64,000 nt of DNA, taken from positions 3,831-67,830 of the IMG/VR virus record IMGVR_UViG_3300042922_000152; one strand, given 5' to 3'. Shown piece after piece: positions 3,712-56,833 of this stretch. Under the pieces are notes generated by a model that was not told the origin of the DNA, did no database searches, and saw nothing but the letters and a program-made list of their open reading frames with translations. Position 1 is the first letter of the stretch. Each line of letters opens with the position of its first letter. The translations under genes were made by a program, and so were the position numbers. This DNA comes from a virus.

Positions 3712-4041
3712 ATGGCAAAGTTTGCAAGCCTGATTGTTGGTCAGACTTATGACGTGATGGGCATTCGCTTTACTGCGAACAACCCGATTGAGGTAGACGA
3801 GGCGCTTGCTGACTACCTCGAAGATAACGAACAGTTCGAAATCACTTCCGGCAAAGCTCCTTCCAAGGAGAAAGCAAAGGGCAAAGGCAAGGACGCTGCA
3901 AAGGCTGAAGTGAAAGCTGATGCTGATGCAGACGAAGAACTTGCGCGCCTTCAGGCTATTGCTGCTACCTTGGAACTGGAAACCGAAGGCCTGAGCGTTG
4001 ACGAAATCAAAGCCCTGATTGAAAAGGCTGAGAACGAGTAA
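3712..4041 (+). CDS. YqbF-like head-associated protein
   Basis: GQTYDVMGIRF...LADYLEDNEQFEI N-terminal domain; position after capsid. Confidence 0.6.
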   Translation: MAKFASLIVGQTYDVMGIRFTANNPIEVDEALADYLEDNEQFEITSGKAPSKEKAKGKGKDAAKAEVKADADADEELARLQAIAATLELETEGLSVDEIKALIEKAENE

Positions 4042-4685: not shown

Positions 4686-5063
4686 ATGTCGTATGCCTCT
4701 TTGCTGTCTGAGCGAGGCGACTTCTTCAGGCTGAAGGAAATCAAAGCGCCTCGTGCCTATGGCGCTCCTGAGAAGAAAACCTTCGGCTATGACGTAACGC
4801 CTGATCTTGCTGACGTGCCTTGTCAGTCTGTACGCTTCGTTGGTCAAGCAAAAATCACTCAGGAAGAACCCAATCGTGTAGTAGAAGCGCAGTTTCTTTT
4901 GCATGTAGGCATATCGCAAGATATACGCCTAAATGACAAGATCATCCTTTATCCTAAAGGTGATACTGCGAAAGCGCGTGGCGTTGCTTACAAGCTGCGT
5001 GAGCCTCGCAATATTCGAGGACATCATTGGGAAGTCGAAATCTATCGGGATGAAAGTCTATGA
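4686..5063 (+). CDS. Head closure protein (XkdH-like)
   Basis: PRNIRGHHWEV motif; synteny. Confidence 0.7.
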   Translation: MSYASLLSERGDFFRLKEIKAPRAYGAPEKKTFGYDVTPDLADVPCQSVRFVGQAKITQEEPNRVVEAQFLLHVGISQDIRLNDKIILYPKGDTAKARGVAYKLREPRNIRGHHWEVEIYRDESL

Positions 5064-5602
5064 CCGGAATCCAAGGACTTGACGACTTTCTGAATGACCT
5101 GACGAAGCTACAGAACATTAAGAATGAGATACCTTTATGGCTCGAAGCCCTATCCTTTCAGTTCCTCGAAGAGGTTCAACGTGAGATTATACGGTCCCAG
5201 ACAGTAGACACTCGCAGGCTATTGAACAGCTTCGACAAAGGAAATGAAGATGGCGTATTCGAGTACAGTAATGGTGGTCTTACACTTGAGGTTGGCACGA
5301 ACCTTGAATATGCGCGCTTTGCGAACGATGGTCACATGACTGTCAGGCCTGACACTCCCGGTGCGAAGCGCTTGAAAAACGGTCAACTTGCTCGCTGGGT
5401 TCCCGGCTACTGGCGAGGCGGTGAGTTCGTGTATGACAAAGGCGCGAAAACAGGAATGCTCTTAAAGGCAAAATGGGTGGAAGGTTCGCATTATTTTGAT
5501 ACGGCATTCAAAATTTGGGAGGCTATGTTCGGCAAGTCTCTTGAGAAAAAGTTTGCCATGTATCTCAATAATCCTACTATGTCTAAGAAAAGGGGGAAAT
5601 AG
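5060..5602 (+). CDS. HK97 gp10-like neck protein (XkdI-like)
   Basis: VDTRRLLNSF, VGTNLEYARFANDGH, WVEGSHYF. Confidence 0.8.
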   Translation: MTGIQGLDDFLNDLTKLQNIKNEIPLWLEALSFQFLEEVQREIIRSQTVDTRRLLNSFDKGNEDGVFEYSNGGLTLEVGTNLEYARFANDGHMTVRPDTPGAKRLKNGQLARWVPGYWRGGEFVYDKGAKTGMLLKAKWVEGSHYFDTAFKIWEAMFGKSLEKKFAMYLNNPTMSKKRGK

Positions 5603-5603
5603 T

Positions 5604-6068
5604 ATGCTTGAGCAGGAGCTTGGTTCGCTTATGAAGCATGTTCATGCTGCGTTTCCTGTCGATATCTGGACAACAAACGCCACGAAAGACCTTTTGCCTC
5701 CTACGCTATACTTCCCTCCCCCGATAATGACAAGTCGTGTCATCATGCCCGACGCCTTTCAGTATTCATACACGCTTAACGTCAAACTGTTTCACAAGAG
5801 TCAGGAAGAAGCATTTGCTCACGCTCATGCTATTTCCATATCTCTCTGCAAGTACAGAATGACGTTTAAGCTCATGGACGAGGCAGGCGAGGACACAGGC
5901 AAAGTGAAGAAGCTGAAGGCTGTCAGAGTGTCAATGTTGACGCAGCCTGACGAGGAAAATCACATTGCCGAAATCGCTATCGAATGGGATTCAATATACA
6001 GGTATGAGCAAGAAGCATATGAGAAGATGATGGAAGTCAACATCAAGAGATTATCAAAGGAGGAATAG
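5604..6068 (+). CDS. Tail terminator (XkdJ-like)
   Basis: PTLYFPPP, YTLNVKLF; precedes sheath. Confidence 0.7.
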   Translation: MLEQELGSLMKHVHAAFPVDIWTTNATKDLLPPTLYFPPPIMTSRVIMPDAFQYSYTLNVKLFHKSQEEAFAHAHAISISLCKYRMTFKLMDEAGEDTGKVKKLKAVRVSMLTQPDEENHIAEIAIEWDSIYRYEQEAYEKMMEVNIKRLSKEE

Positions 6069-6070
6069 AC

Positions 6071-7129
6071 ATGGCAGGAGGTTCTTGGGACCCGGCTTCT
6101 GCGAAGGTGCGCCCCGGTCTTTACATCAACTTCAAAAATGCCGCTATTGCCGCTATTCAAGGCGGCGCTCGCGGTACTGTCGCTGTTCCGCTTGTGACCT
6201 ATACAGGCGCAACAGCAAAGAAGCTGTATGAAGTGGCTAACGTTGCTGAAGCCTCTCAGCTTTTCGGCGCTGCAAACATCAAGCCCATTCAGCGTATTTT
6301 CAAAGGCGGTGCGAACAAGGTTATTGTGTACACCTTGCCCGCTTATGATGCGCAAACAGCCGCGCAGGATTACATTGACATGCGCGCTGCGTTCGATACT
6401 CGCATTTTCAATGTGTTCGTGTACGCAGGCGAAGTGACGAGCGCAGAGCAGGACAACGCGCTTGCGTGGATGCAAGGTAACAAAGCTGAGGGCAAACTGT
6501 TTCAGGTGGTATTCGGTGGCTCTGCTGCTGATGATCAAAACCCCGCAACAGGCAATGCGCGTACTACGCGCCTCGCAGACCCCTATGCTGTTAACCTGAT
6601 TGTCGGCACGATTGAAAGTGGCGTTGTTATCTCGTCCGCTGAGTTCGCTGCCGAAATCGCGGGCCTGATTGCAGGAACGCCTATCAACAAGTCCATTACT
6701 TACGCACAGGTGCGTGTCGATGATGTCAGCAAGCGCCTGACAAATGCGCAGATCATCACAGCACTTCAGGCTGGCTCGCTTGTCCTTGTGCATGACGGTG
6801 AGAAGGTGAAGGTTGAGCGCGGTCTTGCTACCGACAAGAGCAAAATTCGTAAGGTGCGCGCTGAAATCGCTATTCAAACTGACATCACGAAAACAGCCAA
6901 TGATAACTACATTGGCAAGATTGACAATAACACTGACGGTCAGAAGGCGCTCATTGCAGCTATCAAGGCATTCCTTGAAACGCTGGTAACTATGAACGTC
7001 CTCACCGAGGACTTGACTGTCGGTCTGAGTGCTGATTATCCTTCTGTAGGTGACAAGGTTTACATTGACATCAGCTTTACAGAGGTAGACAGCATGGAAG
7101 AAATCTATCTCACCATCACGGTCAACTAA
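6071..7129 (+). CDS. xkdK: Tail sheath protein (XkdK-like, compact 352 aa)
   Basis: MAGGSW..KVRPGLYINF, KIRKVR, YIGKIDN, VDSMEEIY. Confidence 0.9.
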   Translation: MAGGSWDPASAKVRPGLYINFKNAAIAAIQGGARGTVAVPLVTYTGATAKKLYEVANVAEASQLFGAANIKPIQRIFKGGANKVIVYTLPAYDAQTAAQDYIDMRAAFDTRIFNVFVYAGEVTSAEQDNALAWMQGNKAEGKLFQVVFGGSAADDQNPATGNARTTRLADPYAVNLIVGTIESGVVISSAEFAAEIAGLIAGTPINKSITYAQVRVDDVSKRLTNAQIITALQAGSLVLVHDGEKVKVERGLATDKSKIRKVRAEIAIQTDITKTANDNYIGKIDNNTDGQKALIAAIKAFLETLVTMNVLTEDLTVGLSADYPSVGDKVYIDISFTEVDSMEEIYLTITVN

Positions 7130-7149
7130 GAGAGGAGGTATAGCTTACT

Positions 7150-7587
7150 ATGGCACTTGACGAAAAGCGCATTATTAATGGTCAATATGGCGAGCTTTGG
7201 CACGAAGGTGTATGGCAAACCAACGTCATTAGCGTAGAGGCTTCCGTCGAAATCACGAAGGAAGAAGTAAATCGCGCAGGTACTCGCTGGGTAGGTCACA
7301 AAGCTACCTCGCTTAAAGGTACAGGCACGATGCGTGGTTACAAGGTGACTTCCGACTGGGTTGAGCGTATCGGCACTATCGCAAATGACCGCAATTCTGC
7401 CTATGTGACAGAGCTTATTATTGCTCTGAAAGACCCCGAAGCATGGGGGTCTTATCGTTTGCGTCTGAAAGGCGTTTCCTTCGACAAGATTGACCTCGTT
7501 AACTACGAGCTTGGTCAACTGGTTGAAGAAGAAATGGCCTTCACCTTCACAGGCTTTGACCTGCTGGACAAATACACAGCCGTTTAA
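7150..7587 (+). CDS. xkdM: Tail tube protein (XkdM-like)
   Basis: INGQYGELW, GTGTMRGYKVTS, LKDPEA, EEEMAFTF. Confidence 0.9.
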   Translation: MALDEKRIINGQYGELWHEGVWQTNVISVEASVEITKEEVNRAGTRWVGHKATSLKGTGTMRGYKVTSDWVERIGTIANDRNSAYVTELIIALKDPEAWGSYRLRLKGVSFDKIDLVNYELGQLVEEEMAFTFTGFDLLDKYTAV

Positions 7588-41114: not shown

Positions 41115-41906
41115 TTGACAAACAATCCCTACAAGAACCTCGCAAAGCTCATTCAGAACGCGCAGCAAAACCAGTCACCCGAGGATGCGTTCCTTCAGGC
41201 TCTTAACAGCGCTATATCTAAATATAGCAAGCTGAATGACAAGCCTCCCTCACAGTCCTACAAACCCAGTATGCTCGGCGGGTGCCTGCGTGAAATCTAT
41301 TTCACAGTGACAGGCGCTCCCGAGGATGACGTATTGCCTGACCCGAATCTTGTAGGTATGGGGGAATCGGGAACTGACAGGCATTTACGCCTTCAGACTG
41401 TTATCTCCGAAATGAAAAAGATGGGCTTCAAAGATGTCGAATGGATTGACGTTGAGGAATTTTTGAAGTTTCATCCTGTCGAAGGCACAGAGGTTGTAGA
41501 ACGCAAAGGCATGGAGGTAAAGCTGCGAAACACGATTTTTAATATGTCCTTCATGTGTGATGGCATTATTAAGTTTCGCGGCGTTTACTATGTCCTTGAA
41601 ATCAAGACGGAAACAAGTTTCAAGTGGCAGCCTCGAACAGGTCCCGAGCCTAAAGCTGTAGTACAGGCAAGCTCTTACAGCCTGTGTCTTGGCGTAAATA
41701 AGGTGATGTTTGTTTACGAGAATCGGGACGTGTGCAGCAAAAAGGTATACATTCATCAAGTATCTGAAATTGAAAAATATGATCTTGTGGTTCACAAGAT
41801 TGAAGAATGTAACACCTATGTTGAAACGGACACTGTGCCTCCCAAGAGCGACAACAAAAATGACTGTCGCTACTGCGACTACAAGCAGGAATGCAAAAAA
41901 TATTGA
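41115..41906 (+). CDS. Cas4-like PD-(D/E)XK exonuclease
   Basis: PS..GGC.R, GTDRH, CDGI, LEIKT, Q..SY, C-terminal CRYCDY..EC. Confidence 0.85.
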   Translation: MTNNPYKNLAKLIQNAQQNQSPEDAFLQALNSAISKYSKLNDKPPSQSYKPSMLGGCLREIYFTVTGAPEDDVLPDPNLVGMGESGTDRHLRLQTVISEMKKMGFKDVEWIDVEEFLKFHPVEGTEVVERKGMEVKLRNTIFNMSFMCDGIIKFRGVYYVLEIKTETSFKWQPRTGPEPKAVVQASSYSLCLGVNKVMFVYENRDVCSKKVYIHQVSEIEKYDLVVHKIEECNTYVETDTVPPKSDNKNDCRYCDYKQECKKY

Positions 41907-41922
41907 TAGGAGGCTGATTCGA

Positions 41923-42660
41923 TTGACTTTCGTAGCAAAGCGCATTAACGTTATGGAGGGCGGCTTTGAGCAGGAAGGAGGCTATGTCACGCTCAGGAAT
42001 ACAATGGGTGATGACAGGACGATTGTAGACGCTGCGCGCGTATCTTACAATAAACGTGCGGGCGAAGTCCTTTCAGCGAAGGACGTTCGACTCATTGACT
42101 TTCTGGCTGAGAACGGTCACACTTCTCCTTTTCGCCATGCTGTGCTTCAATTCGAGGTACACGCACCTTTGATGGTAGCGCGTCAATGGTGGAAGTATGT
42201 TGTCGGCTCTGTTCATGACACTATGGAAGCCTGGAATGAATCTTCTCGACGCTACATTACAGAGGAAGTGAATTTCTATACACCTAACTCGTCCATGTGG
42301 CGTTTGGCTCCTGAGAACTCGAAACAAGGTTCGGGCGCCAATATGCACTGGAAGGAAGGCGAAGAAGTCACTAAAATGCTCTATGAATTGCAGGAAAAAT
42401 GTCACGATTATTACAAAACCGCAATTGCAATGGGTATATGTGCAGAGCAGGCGCGCTTGTTCCTTCCTGCTTACGGTTTGTACGTTCGCTGGATGTGGAC
42501 TGCTTCGCTGCAAGGCGTAGCTCATTTCATTAACCAACGAACAGCAGAAGACGCTCAAGGCGAAATTCAGAAATTCGCTGAGGCTGTGAAGGAACTGGCG
42601 ATGTATCAGTTTCCTGCTGCGCTGTCTGCTCTGTTAGGTGAAAATAATGAGCGGGCGTAA
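41923..42660 (+). CDS. thyX: Flavin-dependent thymidylate synthase
   Basis: AARVSY, HTSPFRH, VARQWWK, WNESSRRY, EQARLFLP, AQGEI. Confidence 0.9.
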   Translation: MTFVAKRINVMEGGFEQEGGYVTLRNTMGDDRTIVDAARVSYNKRAGEVLSAKDVRLIDFLAENGHTSPFRHAVLQFEVHAPLMVARQWWKYVVGSVHDTMEAWNESSRRYITEEVNFYTPNSSMWRLAPENSKQGSGANMHWKEGEEVTKMLYELQEKCHDYYKTAIAMGICAEQARLFLPAYGLYVRWMWTASLQGVAHFINQRTAEDAQGEIQKFAEAVKELAMYQFPAALSALLGENNERA

Positions 42661-45504: not shown

Positions 45505-45544
45505 AAGGCGCCACTTAAAAGGTGGCGCCTTTTTGCTATACAAT
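45505..45544 (+). promoter_or_regulatory. Terminator-promoter cassette
   Basis: AAGGCGCCAC/GTGGCGCCTT hairpin, TTAAAA, N16, TATACAAT. Confidence 0.75.
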
Positions 45545-45586
45545 GATTAAGCTCAAATTTTAATCATTGTATAGGAGGAATGAAGT

Positions 45587-46195
45587 ATGGGACGTGCATT
45601 ACTCGTGACAGAACTGCCCAAGCCTGTAGTTGGCGAGGAGGCGCTGATTGTAGAGCATACAGACCTGGTTCACTTCGTTTGTCAGCGTTTTCGGACTACT
45701 TCTCATTTTCTTAATGTTGACTATGAGGACTTATATCAGGAAGGCATGATTGGTCTGCTTTTGTCAATTCGCAAGTTTGACCCGACACGTGGTCTTAAAT
45801 TGTCTACCTACGCCGTACCTTCTATATACTTTGCTATTCGTAAATATTTACGCGACAAGTCGCGCTTGATTAGAACACCACGAAGTAAGGTTTCGAAGGC
45901 CTATATCGTCGATAGCTTAGAGCGTACTGCATATAATGGTGATAGTGAGCCTGTTACACTTGGCGACATGATAGGCGTAGATGACGACATGAACAGCTTT
46001 TATTCCGCTGACCTTTGCAACAGGATTATGGAAAGGCTTCCTACGTTACACCGCGAAGTTCTTAATTTAAGCATACAGGGTTACAATCAGCCCGAGATAA
46101 GCAAGAAAGTTGGCATATCGCAACCACATGTAAGCAGAATAATTCGAAGTTCGAAAGAAACCGCTCGCCAAGAATTGTCAGAACATCTTGCATAA
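45587..46195 (+). CDS. Sigma factor, SigF/SigG-like
   Basis: YEDLYQEGMIGL..IRKFD...KLSTYAVP.I...IRKYLRD; QPEISKKVGISQPHVSRI. Confidence 0.9.
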   Translation: MGRALLVTELPKPVVGEEALIVEHTDLVHFVCQRFRTTSHFLNVDYEDLYQEGMIGLLLSIRKFDPTRGLKLSTYAVPSIYFAIRKYLRDKSRLIRTPRSKVSKAYIVDSLERTAYNGDSEPVTLGDMIGVDDDMNSFYSADLCNRIMERLPTLHREVLNLSIQGYNQPEISKKVGISQPHVSRIIRSSKETARQELSEHLA

Positions 46196-48343: not shown

Positions 48344-48351
48344 ATCCAAAC

Positions 48352-48390
48352 AGGCCTCGCTTAAAAAAGCGGGGCCTTTTACTATATAAC
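48352..48390 (+). promoter_or_regulatory. Terminator-promoter cassette
   Basis: AGGCCTCGCT/AGCGGGGCCT hairpin, TTAAAA, N16, TATATAAC. Confidence 0.75.
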
Positions 48391-48415
48391 GTTCTGAAAG
48401 GAGGAAACACACTAT

Positions 48416-49054
48416 ATGCGAAGCGTGGTGAGGTTAAGCGCAGCAGCGCAGAAGCTCGTTGAAGACCATTATAATCTTGCTTGGAAATATGCGCGTAAAT
48501 ATCAGCGCATGGGTTGGGCAAACGGCTTGACTGTTGAAGACCTTGTATCTGCGGGTCATCTTGCTTTAGTCGATGTTGCGCGCTATTATAAACCAGAATC
48601 CGGCTTCGCTTTCGCTACTCCCGCAATAAAAGTTATCAAGCGGTACATCCGAGAAGAAGTTGACAAAAACAGACGCAGAAAAGGCGAAACGCGAGGCTAC
48701 TACGTAATAAGCTTGGACGCTCTTTTGAATAGCGAGCGCATGAAAACGCAAGAGCACCACAATACTAAGCTGACCTATGCCGACACATTCTCGTACCTTC
48801 AGGATTTAACCGACATTGATTACATTGACTTCGTAGAATCTCTTACACTTATGGATCAAACTATACTTAGCCTTCGAATGCAGGACTATTCCTTTCGTGA
48901 GATTGCTGACATGTATGGTCAAAAGAGTATAAACTTTGCGCAGCGTCGCATGATCAAGATAAGAGAAAAATTCATATCGGAGGGACTGCATGAAGCCTAC
49001 CCGTCATTACAGCAAAAGGCAGGAAGAAAGCGTATCTCGAAGCCTCGGTCTTAG
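48416..49054 (+). CDS. Sigma-70 family factor
   Basis: LVEDHYNLAWKYA, EDLVSAG.LAL, FAT.A...I; YSFREIA HTH. Confidence 0.85.
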   Translation: MRSVVRLSAAAQKLVEDHYNLAWKYARKYQRMGWANGLTVEDLVSAGHLALVDVARYYKPESGFAFATPAIKVIKRYIREEVDKNRRRKGETRGYYVISLDALLNSERMKTQEHHNTKLTYADTFSYLQDLTDIDYIDFVESLTLMDQTILSLRMQDYSFREIADMYGQKSINFAQRRMIKIREKFISEGLHEAYPSLQQKAGRKRISKPRS

Positions 49055-52640: not shown

Positions 52641-52680
52641 AGGCCACCGCTTAAAAAACGGGGCCTTTTTACTATATATA
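52641..52680 (+). promoter_or_regulatory. Terminator-promoter cassette
   Basis: AGGCC..CG/CGGGGCCT imperfect hairpin, TTAAAA, N16, TATATATA. Confidence 0.7.
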
Positions 52681-52729
52681 GATATGTAAGACTAATTCTA
52701 AACTACTATTCTCTTGGAGGAGAACACAC

Positions 52730-53066: not shown

Positions 53067-53423
53067 ATGGGCGCTGTCGCTATTGAGACTTACAACGCAC
53101 AGCTAATGGCTATAGCAAACTACGAAAACGCTGGTCAATTGAAACACTTACTGCGAAACTATAACAACCTGTACGGACTTTCTCAGCGTGGCGATGGTGT
53201 AGCCCAGAGCATTTACATTGACCTGAAGACAGCGCTTGAAGCTAACGCGCTCACTGATCTTCAGGCGCTCTACATAAGGGAACATCTGATTGAGGGTATG
53301 TCCCTCGAATACCTGAGTAACTTTTACGGTGTTAAACGCGCATCAGTAGCAGATTCCGTTAAGCGAGGCCTGAGCAATCTTCAGAAGGTCTTGCAGGGAG
53401 GAAACCTGTATGCGCGCTCGTGA
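53067..53423 (+). CDS. Sigma region-4-type HTH regulator
   Basis: IDLKTALE..LTDLQ...EGMS..LS..YGVKRASV. Confidence 0.65.
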   Translation: MGAVAIETYNAQLMAIANYENAGQLKHLLRNYNNLYGLSQRGDGVAQSIYIDLKTALEANALTDLQALYIREHLIEGMSLEYLSNFYGVKRASVADSVKRGLSNLQKVLQGGNLYARS

Positions 53424-53702: not shown

Positions 53703-53742
53703 AAGGAGCCACTTAAAAATGGCTCCTTTTTTGCTATATAAA
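53703..53742 (+). promoter_or_regulatory. Terminator-promoter cassette
   Basis: AAGGAGCCA/TGGCTCCTT hairpin, TTAAAA, N16, TATATAAA. Confidence 0.75.
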
Positions 53743-53761
53743 GAGTAAAGGAGGAATGAAC

Positions 53762-54484
53762 ATGACAATTTACAAAGCTAATAACTGGGAGTTTAACGAG
53801 GACGTAGCGAAGGTTTTCAAAGATCATGTCCGGCAATCTGTGCCCATGTACGATGCGTTTCACGACATGATTGCAGAATTATCACGCTGGTTCATCAGGA
53901 ACGACTCTATAGTGTTTGACCTCGGTTGCGCAACGGGTGAAGTCATCAGGCGTTTGTGCCTGGAACATGCTGACAAGAATGTTACTTATGTTGGTATTGA
54001 TAATTCGATTGCCATGATTCAAGAGTCCCATGAAATGGTAAACACCTATAAATTTCAGAATGTTTGTCTGCAACAAGACGACATAAGAAATCTTGAGGAT
54101 TATGTACCCGGCGAAGGTACTCTGGATTTCATTACGTCCGTACTCACGCTTCAATTCGTTCATCCGCGTTATCGTCCTGAGATTTTACGCGCTGTTCATG
54201 CTTCACTCGCTCCCGGCGGTGCGTTCATCCTTGTTGAGAAGACCGTAGGCGCGTTCGCGCAGCTTGATGAAATGTATGTCGAATGCTATCATGAAATGAA
54301 AATGCGCAAAGGTTTGACGGTGCAAGACGTTCACGACAAGCAAAAATCTCTGCGCAGCGTACTTATGCCTGCGTCTGTAGGTGAGAACATTCGCTGGTTG
54401 AAGGACGCTGGCTTTCGTACAATGGAGGCATTCTTCAAATGGCACAATTTTGTAGGCATTATTGCCATTAAGGACAATGTATGA
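53762..54484 (+). CDS. CmoA-like (carboxy-SAM synthase family) SAM-dependent enzyme
   Basis: WEF..DVAKVF..HVRQSVP.Y, DLGCATG, GIDNS..M, LTLQF, LVEK, NF...IA.K. Confidence 0.8.
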   Translation: MTIYKANNWEFNEDVAKVFKDHVRQSVPMYDAFHDMIAELSRWFIRNDSIVFDLGCATGEVIRRLCLEHADKNVTYVGIDNSIAMIQESHEMVNTYKFQNVCLQQDDIRNLEDYVPGEGTLDFITSVLTLQFVHPRYRPEILRAVHASLAPGGAFILVEKTVGAFAQLDEMYVECYHEMKMRKGLTVQDVHDKQKSLRSVLMPASVGENIRWLKDAGFRTMEAFFKWHNFVGIIAIKDNV

Positions 54485-55335
54485 CAAAGGCGCAGGAGTT
54501 TCGAACACTGTTGCTGCAAAAAGTCGAAGCTATTACGAAGGAGCATAAAGACCTGGCTTTGTTGTTCAGCGGGGGAACAGATTCGAGCCTGATTCTGTTC
54601 TGTCTCCTCGAACTTGGTATAAAGCCTGTATGCTACACCTTTGGCGTCGAAGGCTACAGGTCAAGAGACGTTATAGTCTCTCAGCAGCTTGCACAGCACT
54701 TTGGCGTTAAGCAGCAGCTTATCATGCTGAAGCCTGATGTCCAAACGCTTGAGCGAGACGTGCGGCAGATCATACGCTATGCAAAGACCTCACGCAAAAC
54801 TGTTGTGCAATGCCTTCACCCAATCAAGTATGTAATGCAGGTAGTGAAGGAGCCTGTATTGCTGAATGGTCTTAACGCTGACTCACTCTATGGAACAAGT
54901 CGGAAAATCTGCATTGAAGGCAAGGACGACAAGGAAGCCTTTGACAGGCTGCGGTACGCTGAAATGTATGACCCGGAACTGTCCGACTTTTATATCAAGC
55001 GATACGTGGAGAGTCATGGTATAGTGTCGATTGACCCGTATCGTGACAAGGAAATAGAGGACTTCTTTCTCCCATTCACATGGCGAGAAGTGAATGAGCC
55101 TAAAGAGAAGCAGATTGCTGTAGACGCCTTTCAGGATTACTTCGGCGCGTTCGACTTTTACAGGCGCTCCGCGTCCTACCAGATTGAAAGCAAGCTGCGT
55201 GAATATCATGACTTGCTGCTTGCACAGCCTCACTTGAACCTCAAAGGCTGGAAGATTGTTAAGCCCATTTATGACCTGATTTACTCGCAAGAAGTTCTTC
55301 AGGCAGGCAAACCCAAGCAGCGGCGATTATTTTAG
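54481..55335 (+). CDS. Asparagine-synthase-like ATP-dependent amide ligase (no glutaminase domain)
   Basis: PP-loop LFSGGTDS; NGLNADSLYG; C-terminal QRRLF. Confidence 0.8.
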   Translation: MTKAQEFRTLLLQKVEAITKEHKDLALLFSGGTDSSLILFCLLELGIKPVCYTFGVEGYRSRDVIVSQQLAQHFGVKQQLIMLKPDVQTLERDVRQIIRYAKTSRKTVVQCLHPIKYVMQVVKEPVLLNGLNADSLYGTSRKICIEGKDDKEAFDRLRYAEMYDPELSDFYIKRYVESHGIVSIDPYRDKEIEDFFLPFTWREVNEPKEKQIAVDAFQDYFGAFDFYRRSASYQIESKLREYHDLLLAQPHLNLKGWKIVKPIYDLIYSQEVLQAGKPKQRRLF

Positions 55336-55352
55336 AAAGGAGGCTTGCAGCT

Positions 55353-55787
55353 ATGGGAGATATGGCGGATTACTATCTTGATCTGGCGATGAACGCTTAC
55401 GGTCTTGACGTAAACGACGAATGGCAAGGACGCTCATACAGCAGAAAGCATAAGACAAGGACGCACTACACGCAGTATCGAAAGCCTGAAAAGAGTAATA
55501 AGCCCACGGTACAATTTCTCAAATTGCGGGATAATCCTAAGCTCTGGATAAACGCAGAAGGTGACATTATTCACATTTACGACATGGACAGCAAACACCT
55601 GTTCAACTGCGTGAGACTTATTGAACGGCGTGAGCAAGAGCAGAAAGGAAATCCTCCTCCTGTATATGCGGAAATGATTAAGGAGCTGGTGAAGCGCGGC
55701 GTCATCACAGAACGCTATCAGCAGCAATCCTACATGAGAAAAAGCTTGAATGTGGAGGTAAACCTAAATGCGATTTACAATGACTGA
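55353..55787 (+). CDS. Hypothetical phage protein
   Basis: MGDMADYY; W...G..I.I.DM...HL.N. Confidence 0.6.
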   Translation: MGDMADYYLDLAMNAYGLDVNDEWQGRSYSRKHKTRTHYTQYRKPEKSNKPTVQFLKLRDNPKLWINAEGDIIHIYDMDSKHLFNCVRLIERREQEQKGNPPPVYAEMIKELVKRGVITERYQQQSYMRKSLNVEVNLNAIYND

Positions 55788-56796
55788 TTTATTTTGTGGC
55801 TCTGGTATAGGTGCGATAGGTTTTCTCGCAGCAGGTTTTGATATTAACTATGCTCTTGATTTTAATGAATATGCGGTGAATACTTACAACCTGAATCACG
55901 CTGGTAAACACGCATTCAAGGCTGATGTGCGCGAGCTTGTATCAAGTGACCTGCCTGATAATGACATTATCTCGGGAGGTTTTCCTTGTACCCCCTTTTC
56001 ACTCGGAGGCAGCAACAGAGGCGAGAATGACGAGCGCCTTGGCAATCTTGGTTATCACTTCTTCAGGATGATACAGGTCAAGAAGCCTATGGCCTTCATC
56101 GTTGAGAATGTCGAAGGCCTGACGAATGGGCGACACGTAAGATTCTTTCACTCGCTCATTGGTTGGCTTGAAAGTGCTGGCTACAATGTCGCTTTTCGTG
56201 TCGTCGATTGTTGGGACTATGGCGTACCACAGACACGAAATCGTGTGTTTATCGTAGGTATTCGCAAAGACCTTGGCAAGCATTTTGTGTTCCCTGAAGT
56301 GCTGCCTATTCATGAACGTCCTACGATGCGTCAAGCGATATCTGACCTTCCTTTTCATCCTGAAGGCAGTAACATCCGCAATCATGTACGCTTTGTGCGT
56401 GGCTTCTCCTCGCGTTCTGCAATGATGAACAGGCAGCGCACATGGGACGAACCATCGTATACCATAGTCAGCAATCCTCGTCACCTTCCTTTGCATCCTG
56501 AGCCAGCAGGCTACGACTTCAGGCACAGAAGCATTGAGCAGATACATGAGGACGAGAAGAACCATATTATTCGCAGGCTTACAGTTAGAGAATGTCTGCG
56601 CCTTCAGTCTGTACCTGATTGGTACTACTTCCCCGATATACCTGGGCGCAAGCTGAACGGCATCCTTGAGAAGCAGCATGAACGCTGTTCCGGTATTCCT
56701 CCCATCGTTGCTGAAAAGCTTGGTAAGCGCCTGATTGACACACTGACAGGCGACTTTCAAGAACCGCCTCGACAGAAAAAACTTTTCTCCATTTAA
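55768..56796 (+). CDS. DNA C5-cytosine methyltransferase homologue with atypical motif X
   Basis: DLFCGSG, GGFPC, ENV, QTRNR, RRLTVREC.RLQ; motif X reads HERCSGIPP. Confidence 0.9.
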   Translation: MRFTMTDLFCGSGIGAIGFLAAGFDINYALDFNEYAVNTYNLNHAGKHAFKADVRELVSSDLPDNDIISGGFPCTPFSLGGSNRGENDERLGNLGYHFFRMIQVKKPMAFIVENVEGLTNGRHVRFFHSLIGWLESAGYNVAFRVVDCWDYGVPQTRNRVFIVGIRKDLGKHFVFPEVLPIHERPTMRQAISDLPFHPEGSNIRNHVRFVRGFSSRSAMMNRQRTWDEPSYTIVSNPRHLPLHPEPAGYDFRHRSIEQIHEDEKNHIIRRLTVRECLRLQSVPDWYYFPDIPGRKLNGILEKQHERCSGIPPIVAEKLGKRLIDTLTGDFQEPPRQKKLFSI

Positions 56797-56833
56797 GACT
56801 TGCTTAAAAAGCAAGTCTTTTTTCTTATATAAC
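56795..56833 (+). promoter_or_regulatory. Terminator-promoter cassette
   Basis: AAGACTTGCT/AGCAAGTCTT hairpin, TTAAAA, N16, TATATAAC. Confidence 0.75.

Follow-up and report, generated by a model that had tools for sequence, protein, structure and literature searches.

A three-enzyme route to hypermodified cytosine has been described in Synechococcus phage S-B43, and the paper on it (Yang et al., Nat Commun 2025, PMC12783734) sets out its logic. CmoA makes carboxy-S-adenosylmethionine (carboxy-SAM), CmoX (structure PDB 8YF3) places the carboxymethyl group onto C5 of cytosine at GC sites, and CmoY ligates glycine using ATP; the virion DNA bears the glycine amide, and the evidence comprises liquid chromatography-mass spectrometry (LC-MS), a crystal structure and reconstitution. 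Selectivity in the S-B43 transferase (SpCmoX) is attributed to R350, which replaces Asn304 of M.HhaI, touches the carboxymethyl group and makes the enzyme strictly dependent on carboxy-SAM. CmoX candidates were defined by an SPPC motif together with R350, giving a census of 5,615. Here we analyzed 64,000 bases (the window) of a 67,830-bp virus record that bears direct terminal repeats (IMG/VR record IMGVR_UViG_3300042922_000152, positions 3,831 to 67,830), in which positions 53756-56796 hold four genes in a single transcription unit, encoding a CmoA homologue, a predicted CmoY-like ligase, an orphan protein and a C5-cytosine transferase. We consider it likely that this phage operon serves to hypermodify DNA cytosines in the manner of CmoA, CmoY and CmoX. 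The pathway is already published; what appears to be new, judging from the sequences, is that the transferase belongs to a different and so far unrecognized branch of the cytosine methyltransferases.

The transferase (342 aa, 55768-56796; all features given here lie on the forward strand) matches PF00145 at 2.1e-59 and retains canonical C5-methyltransferase motifs I, IV (PC), VI (ENV) and VIII (QxRxR) intact, with the catalytic GGFPCTPF and its nucleophile Cys74 at 55975-55998, ENV at residues 113-115 and Q155/R157/R159. It is the only C5-methyltransferase match in the genome of the window phage, and among PADLOC models it matched generic methyltransferases only. Its motif X, which reads QHERCSGIPP (56674-56703), is without the Gly-Asn of canonical 5-methylcytosine (5mC) methyltransferases. 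This pair is kept by M.HaeIII (YKMIGNAVP), the methylating partner in the HaeIII restriction-modification system, by phi3T enzymes (VGNGI and AGNSI), and by the GGCC methylase of pFV1 (YTMVGNAVP), which adjoins an NgoPII-family endonuclease in a restriction system and so retains V-G-N-A-V in that setting. The original prediction, made from the sequence of this locus, had noted both the intact PC/ENV/RxR motifs and the missing Asn, and both readings stand. It had missed that the variant occurs beyond the window phage, as the hallmark of a large CmoA-associated clade. R-[CT]-S-G-I-P is present in 118 of the 120 best among 2,541 homologues of the window enzyme found at E <= 1e-20, and Q303, R306, C307, S308, G309, I310 and P311 are invariant across 22 diverse clade members; database names for the clade proteins are generic only. 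Peptide patterns found no close relatives of the window enzyme in IMG/VR, and scanning IMG/VR with an alignment of its closest relatives returned only methyltransferases at <=33% identity to it.

The window enzyme thus stands for a variant class not previously reported, and the gene neighborhoods of its clade make a strong genomic case for carboxy-SAM use. DNA encoding Q[YH]ERCSGIP was sought in viral contigs, species genomes and metagenome contigs, yielding 9, 9 and 54 matches, respectively; 7, 2 and 44 of these lay in C5-methyltransferase ORFs, and 5, 2 and 15 of the latter have a CmoA homologue no more than 2 kb away. Removal of duplicates left 41 unique clade enzymes, 18 of them with CmoA inside the flanks of up to 2 kb and 2 more with a CmoY-like ligase alone, and these CmoA counts are lower bounds because the flanks span only ~1 kb upstream of the methyltransferase and miss a CmoA that lies beyond a ligase. 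Among the 22 members whose flanks extend 650 bp or more to either side, CmoA is present in 14; for a fifteenth, a sixth viral record, a gene weakly resembling CmoA (59.9 bits) lies just past the flank. One viral locus (L207) repeats the CmoA-ligase-methyltransferase order of the window.

A simpler account must be weighed against this linkage, namely that the window enzyme is an ordinary SAM-dependent GGCC 5mC methylase with an anti-restriction role like those of SPbeta-type phages, that CmoA and the ligase have another substrate, such as tRNA or a small molecule, and that the change in motif X is neutral. The intact catalytic motifs are compatible with such an enzyme, as is the best match by both sequence and fold, M.HaeIII, and some clade members, including that of Vibrio phage ICP1, stand without a nearby CmoA. 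The association with CmoA, however, recurs over enzymes that have diverged to 36-82% mutual identity (median 49%, n=21 CmoA-linked members compared) and over varied gene orders, CmoA lying upstream, downstream or beyond a ligase. As a control, two scans for generic GFPC-type methyltransferases gave 111 loci with 6-kb flanks; CmoA stood at one, which was the sole QYERCSGIP locus, and at none of the 110 loci with other GFPC-type enzymes. Profile matches of the window operon to Pfam, NCBIfam and PHROG likewise revealed no CmoB-like partner, a further point against this account. We therefore regard an ordinary methylase as unlikely, and if the window enzyme were one, its tight linkage to CmoA would need another explanation.

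The search was also run in reverse. Among 80 CmoA-anchored IMG/VR loci, a C5-methyltransferase lies within 5 kb in 11, comprising nine SPPC/R350 enzymes, one clade member (QYNRCSGVP) and one other Asn-less type. At 69 of the 80 CmoA-anchored phage loci (L009-L088) no C5-methyltransferase is found within 5 kb, and the CmoAs are nearly all of the E. coli-like type, with Arg and Glu at the two positions discussed below. Two further CmoA-adjacent C5-methyltransferases without the Asn were noted at 4986-7504 of locus L001, from Staphylococcus phage vB-SscS-F1, and at 5721-6941 of locus L009 ('YDVVGGVINQ' and 'QLYRRPSRSV'), and the existence of these enzymes indicates that the Asn-less partners of CmoA are more varied than two classes.

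The pairing of CmoA with a clade methyltransferase extends to bacterial replicons, being found on four Bacillales megaplasmids and one Bacillus chromosome. In the species genomes it occurs on the chromosome of Bacillus sp. M6-12 and on an Aneurinibacillus plasmid, with CmoA just upstream of the methyltransferase, and in both the adjacent CmoA is the only CmoA-like gene of at least 160 bits in the genome. Because these hosts have no other CmoA-like gene at that level, the adjacent CmoA appears to be dedicated to the methyltransferase, which again argues against an ordinary methylase. Among the PLSDB megaplasmids, CmoA lies immediately upstream in Brevibacillus halotolerans, Bacillus thuringiensis Bt407 (BTB_502p) and Jeotgalibacillus malaysiensis, and each of the three CmoAs shows the swapped Arg described below. 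Bacillus sp. M6-12 (L223, 4086-16636) and the Aneurinibacillus plasmid (L224, 8206-15951) also share an island composed of a family-less protein of ~975 aa, CmoA, the clade methyltransferase and a second Asn-less C5-methyltransferase with the motif X 'WQKICSSISP', which falls with the R350 CmoX clade; next come StiP/PELOTA genes, and one of the two islands additionally has phosphoribosyltransferase (PRTase)/TRSP, C-C bond lyase and HAD genes.

A natural paired comparison for the residues that set cofactor choice is provided by two plasmid orthologues. The Bt407 enzyme (L281, 4175-6203) has an adjacent CmoA and the motif QYERCSGIPS, whereas the enzyme of C. perfringens plasmid pJFP838A (L284, 2950-4221), which is 57.7% identical to it over 421 aa and occupies a syntenic locus in which a replication-relaxation gene and a helix-turn-helix regulator lie downstream, reads KQYEIVGNGIPS (QYEIVGNGIPS), thus keeping the Asn in a motif one residue longer. 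No CmoA match was found within 3 kb of the pJFP838A gene, even at E <= 1, and this Asn-keeping orthologue without CmoA is a further point against a neutral motif change. The pair also fixes the alignment as E-R-C-S-(gap)-G against E-I-V-G-N-G, such that the Asn has been deleted and the invariant Arg306 lies three residues before its former place.

The CmoA homologue (242 aa, 53756-54484), predicted to be a carboxy-SAM synthase, matches TIGR00740 (1.8e-47, 162 bits), phrog_4752 (1.3e-66) and the E. coli CmoA structure 4GEK (3.4e-30), and is 29% identical to SpCmoA in pairwise alignment; its gene starts at 53756, the start first proposed at 53762 being the second Met. Contacts to SAM, mapped by hand from the 4GEK alignment, are kept at Y32, D55, G57, D82, N83, D109, F134 and E161, equivalent to E. 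coli Y39, D62, G64, D89, N90, D117, F137 and E164 as described in PMC3663124. According to the same source, Arg199 of E. coli CmoA forms a salt bridge with the carboxylate of the cofactor. HMMER aligns the window protein with 4GEK without gaps and sets this residue against Gln196, as the original prediction had found by eye, and within the KQKSLRS segment (54338-54358) Arg200 takes the place of E. coli Glu203, forming a swapped pair. Alignment of four proteins places Gln/Arg at positions 199/203 in the window and in a Staphylococcus phage CmoA, Glu/Arg in SpCmoA and Arg/Glu in an Erwinia phage CmoA; among 108 CmoA homologues, 79 are Arg/Glu and 18 are of the swapped x/Arg type. In the AlphaFold2 model (mean predicted local distance difference test, pLDDT, 91.7), Gln196 lies within helix 189-199 and Arg200 at its C-terminal end, and we infer that the two positions could reach the same spot.

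This arrangement bears on whether the CmoA-methyltransferase pair makes and transfers some derivative other than carboxy-SAM, whose group the ligase would then modify, as the original prediction had proposed. The alignment of Arg199 to Gln196 is real, and CmoA partners without Arg at either position do occur within the clade (8 of the 108 rows, duplicate contigs included). The inference drawn from Gln196 is nevertheless not supported, since SpCmoA, with Glu at this position and Arg four residues on, is a verified carboxy-SAM synthase with a kcat of 2.33 per s, ~10x faster than the E. coli enzyme (PMC12783734), and alignment to the characterized proteins shows that Arg200 of the window matches this swap. 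The window protein also fits TIGR00740 better than SpCmoA does (162 vs 115.6 bits), and a SpCmoY-like ATP-dependent amide ligase needs a carboxylate to activate. We consider transfer of a different group very unlikely for the window, leaving the CmoA/ligase/Asn-less methyltransferase operon itself as the part of that proposal that is retained. The Arg-less partners (loci L200/L122/L244, L202/L226/L263, L208 and L234, among which D..F, E..S, Q..S and Q..E occur) may make a different product, or another residue may substitute, and chemistry may consequently vary in parts of the clade.

The ligase gene (284 aa, 54481-55335) shares its first 4 nt with the end of cmoA. Its product matches Asn_synthase PF00733 (6.2e-10) over residues 6-138 only, carries the PP-loop SGGTDS of ATP pyrophosphatases (54568-54585) and has no glutaminase domain; pairwise comparison with SpCmoY gives 30% identity over 239 residues (E 1e-34). 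An AsnB synthetase-type PP-loop domain, the absent glutaminase domain and homology to SpCmoY are the features of a CmoY-type enzyme, and the three family assignments made at the outset are borne out by TIGR00740, PF00733 and PF00145; the other sequence readings of the original prediction hold as well. Its statement that phage clusters of CmoA, methyltransferase and amide ligase had been reported was likewise accurate, S-B43 being such a case (PMC12783734). The ligase family is small, with 27 other clusters at E <= 1e-10, all of 250-320 aa and the nearest at 56% identity. Between the ligase and transferase genes lies an ORF of 144 aa (55353-55787), previously overlooked, which overlaps the transferase start by 20 nt. 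It matched no Pfam, NCBIfam or PHROG family and gave no informative Atlas match, and a search of 5.8 billion proteins found no homologue but itself.

Taken together, the operon is proposed to proceed in three steps. In the first, by homology, CmoA would convert SAM and prephenate to carboxy-SAM, the putative carboxylate-binding Arg being shifted to Arg200 as in SpCmoA. In the second, as gene linkage and motif anatomy suggest, Cys74 would attack C6 of cytosine and the carboxymethyl group would pass from carboxy-SAM to C5, with Arg306 in the shortened motif X proposed to hold the carboxylate. The engineered carboxymethyltransferase M.MpeI N374K offers a precedent in which loss of the Asn and a basic side chain in the pocket go with carboxy-SAM use (PMC12783734). 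Modification probably falls on the inner C of GGCC, since the target-recognition domain resembles that of M.HaeIII (1dct_A; 1.5e-48 over residues 5-288, this region included, the HMMER alignment ending before motif X); GGCC occurs at 113 sites in the window, at 0.75 of expectation. In the third step, homology to SpCmoY suggests that the PP-loop ligase would adenylate the carboxylate and join an amine, giving a 5-carboxymethylcytosine amide. Glycine is the sole precedent for this amine, and the window's amine need not be glycine.

We acknowledge that several observations weigh against this assignment. The window enzyme carries GFPC instead of SPPC, and its E-R-C-S-G-I-P-P is one residue shorter than the E-R-V-G-R-M-V-P-P of SpCmoX and has no R350; it thus falls outside both parts of the published CmoX definition, although, like CmoX enzymes, which lie beside CmoA and often a CmoY ligase, it is encoded together with a CmoA and a CmoY-like ligase. 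Its nearest solved and characterized relative is M.HaeIII, a true 5mC enzyme, which ranked first in a fold search with the predicted model (TM-score 0.80, 31% identity), whereas CmoX 8YF3 appeared only at rank 21 (TM-score 0.69), and the GGCC assignment is drawn entirely from the M.HaeIII similarity. The carboxylate contact of Arg306 is a role suggested for the residue rather than an observed geometry, the motif X region (residues 301-310) having a mean pLDDT of 65 in a model that averages 83.7. The ligase is no more than 30% identical to SpCmoY. For CmoA, two E. coli contact residues are altered (S66 to A59 and N132 to V129), and the score falls under the curated TIGR00740 cut-off of 193.3 bits, though this cut-off fails to separate active phage enzymes, as the lower score of the verified SpCmoA indicates. 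At the level of the clade, all of the CmoA rows without Arg at 199 or 203 adjoin clade methyltransferases, 8 of the 22 members with adequate flanks have no nearby CmoA, and no CmoA is present in the entire 127-kb genome of Vibrio phage ICP1 (MW794141.1), even though its methyltransferase (L008, 4001-5020) carries KQYERCSGIPP and is 43% identical to the window enzyme in a MAFFT alignment. If the clade uses carboxy-SAM, members such as that of ICP1, which lack their own CmoA, would have to be supplied with cofactor by the CmoA of the host; an E. coli host supplied the cofactor of SpCmoX, according to PMC12783734. Among the papers listed in our literature search, none dealt specifically with an ICP1 cytosine methylase.

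Members without a CmoA neighbor also raise the possibility of a relaxed enzyme that accepts both SAM and carboxy-SAM, in which case the DNA would contain a mixture of 5mC and 5-carboxymethylcytosine (or its amide) in a ratio set by CmoA supply. Such members would stay useful as plain methylases, and the window enzyme is without the R350 that makes SpCmoX strictly carboxy-SAM-dependent. The invariance of both the Arg and the deletion across the clade argues instead for a specialized pocket, and the R350N variant of SpCmoX, described in PMC12783734 as dead on both cofactors, suggests that such a pocket is not easily made permissive. This renders a relaxed enzyme quite unlikely, and a dedicated carboxymethyltransferase remains our preferred reading of the window gene.

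The relationship of the clade to the published CmoX enzymes was considered in a 73-row tree, in which the 23 rows of the clade form the sister group of a phi3T_149-type clade that keeps the Asn, with 98% support in the Shimodaira-Hasegawa-like approximate likelihood ratio test (SH-aLRT), and the R350 clade (97%) is placed alongside the second methyltransferases of the Bacillales islands. A single clade of all Asn-less enzymes is not rejected by the approximately unbiased (AU) test (log-likelihood difference 2.86, p-AU 0.436), and the QYERCSGIP clade may either have split off from CmoX or have been recruited independently.

On balance, we lean somewhat towards the view that the clade is a second large, unrecognized class of natural DNA cytosine carboxymethyltransferases, present also on Bacillales replicons with a dedicated CmoA. 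Its signature would be a deleted motif-X Asn with an invariant Arg three positions earlier, which escapes the SPPC and R350 definition; the published census of 5,615 candidates cannot contain the clade because it was filtered on these two features. Literature searches on 5-carboxymethylcytosine, 5cxmC, DNA carboxy-SAM and CmoA-linked carboxymethyltransferases found only the work of Yang et al. and methods papers on engineered enzymes. The motif string ERCSGIP was not found in the literature, though the supplementary PDFs of PMC12783734, which lay outside this search, might mention variants; the xlsx supplement of that paper has none of the motif strings searched. Should the clade use carboxy-SAM, carboxymethyl-cytosine marks would be more widespread than reported, in bacterial replicons as well as phages and with four-base (GGCC-type) specificity, and 5-carboxymethylcytosine would also mark bacterial DNA, including the B. 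thuringiensis Bt407 plasmid BTB_502p. The clade would then offer a second structural route to a carboxymethyl-donor pocket, which would be useful for engineering sequence-specific DNA carboxymethylases.

PHROG matches of the window genes indicate that the phage carrying the operon has a contractile tail and encodes replication genes of its own. Its host is probably a Firmicute, since the phage clamp loader finds its nearest counterparts in phages of Bacillus, Streptococcus and Clostridium (41-50% identity); no near-identical phage DNA was found in the phage collection searched. The original description of the operon as bounded by cassettes is well founded, in that a hairpin element stands at each end and belongs to a repeated family. 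The upstream cassette (53703-53748, directly 5' of cmoA) consists of a terminator-like hairpin (53703-53728), a T-run and 'GCTATATAAAG', is probably a terminator plus phage promoter, and is one of the D1 family of repeats, which occur at 45505, 48351, 52641 and 53703. The downstream cassette (56795-56829) closes the unit with a terminator-like hairpin (56795-56819) followed by TTTTCTTATA. In general form the repeated cassette has a hairpin rich in GC whose loop reads CTTAAAA, together with a T-run and a CTATA(T/C)A box. It is found at 45505-45550, 48351-48396, 52641-52686, 53703-53748 and 56795-56829 and probably acts as both terminator and phage-specific promoter. The window phage also has three sigma-factor-like genes (45587-46195, 48416-49054 and 53067-53423) and, at 41710-42660, a flavin-dependent thymidylate synthase ThyX (PF02511, 8.7e-34) of ordinary appearance that gives no hint of a second base-modification route. 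Over positions 1-64000, CTAG occurs 0 times against ~90 expected from trinucleotide counts, as if a restriction site were being avoided altogether, and GATC and CCAG occur at 0.45 and 0.35 of expectation, respectively.

Set against the known systems, the window operon combines features of several. With the E. coli CmoA/CmoB pathway for tRNA cmo5U34 (4GEK) it shares the CmoA fold and the SAM-contact residues, and differs in having no CmoB, in replacing Arg199 with Gln and placing an Arg at +4, and in a predicted acceptor that is DNA instead of tRNA. M.MpeI N374K resembles the window transferase in combining loss of the motif-X Asn with a basic residue, which in the window enzyme is predicted to lie in the pocket for the cofactor; there, however, the Asn is substituted at its own position and CG is recognized, whereas in the window the Asn is deleted, the basic residue lies three earlier and GGCC is the predicted site. 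M.HaeIII (1DCT) is the best match by sequence and by fold, extending through the target-recognition region, but keeps the canonical motif X and is not known to partner with CmoA. The S-B43 system differs from the window in that its transferase is only 23% identical and recognizes GC rather than the GGCC predicted by a HaeIII-like target-recognition domain, in that the window operon contains the extra orphan ORF, and in that the S-B43 host is cyanobacterial whereas that of the window phage is Firmicute-type. In its organization, S-B43 is nonetheless the closest parallel: the three enzyme types and the CmoA-ligase-methyltransferase gene order are the same, SpCmoA has the relocated Arg of the window CmoA, SpCmoY and the window ligase both dispense with the glutaminase domain, and SpCmoX, together with 9 other CmoA-linked SPPC enzymes, likewise lacks the motif-X Asn and presents an Arg three positions before it (W-E-R-L-G-R).

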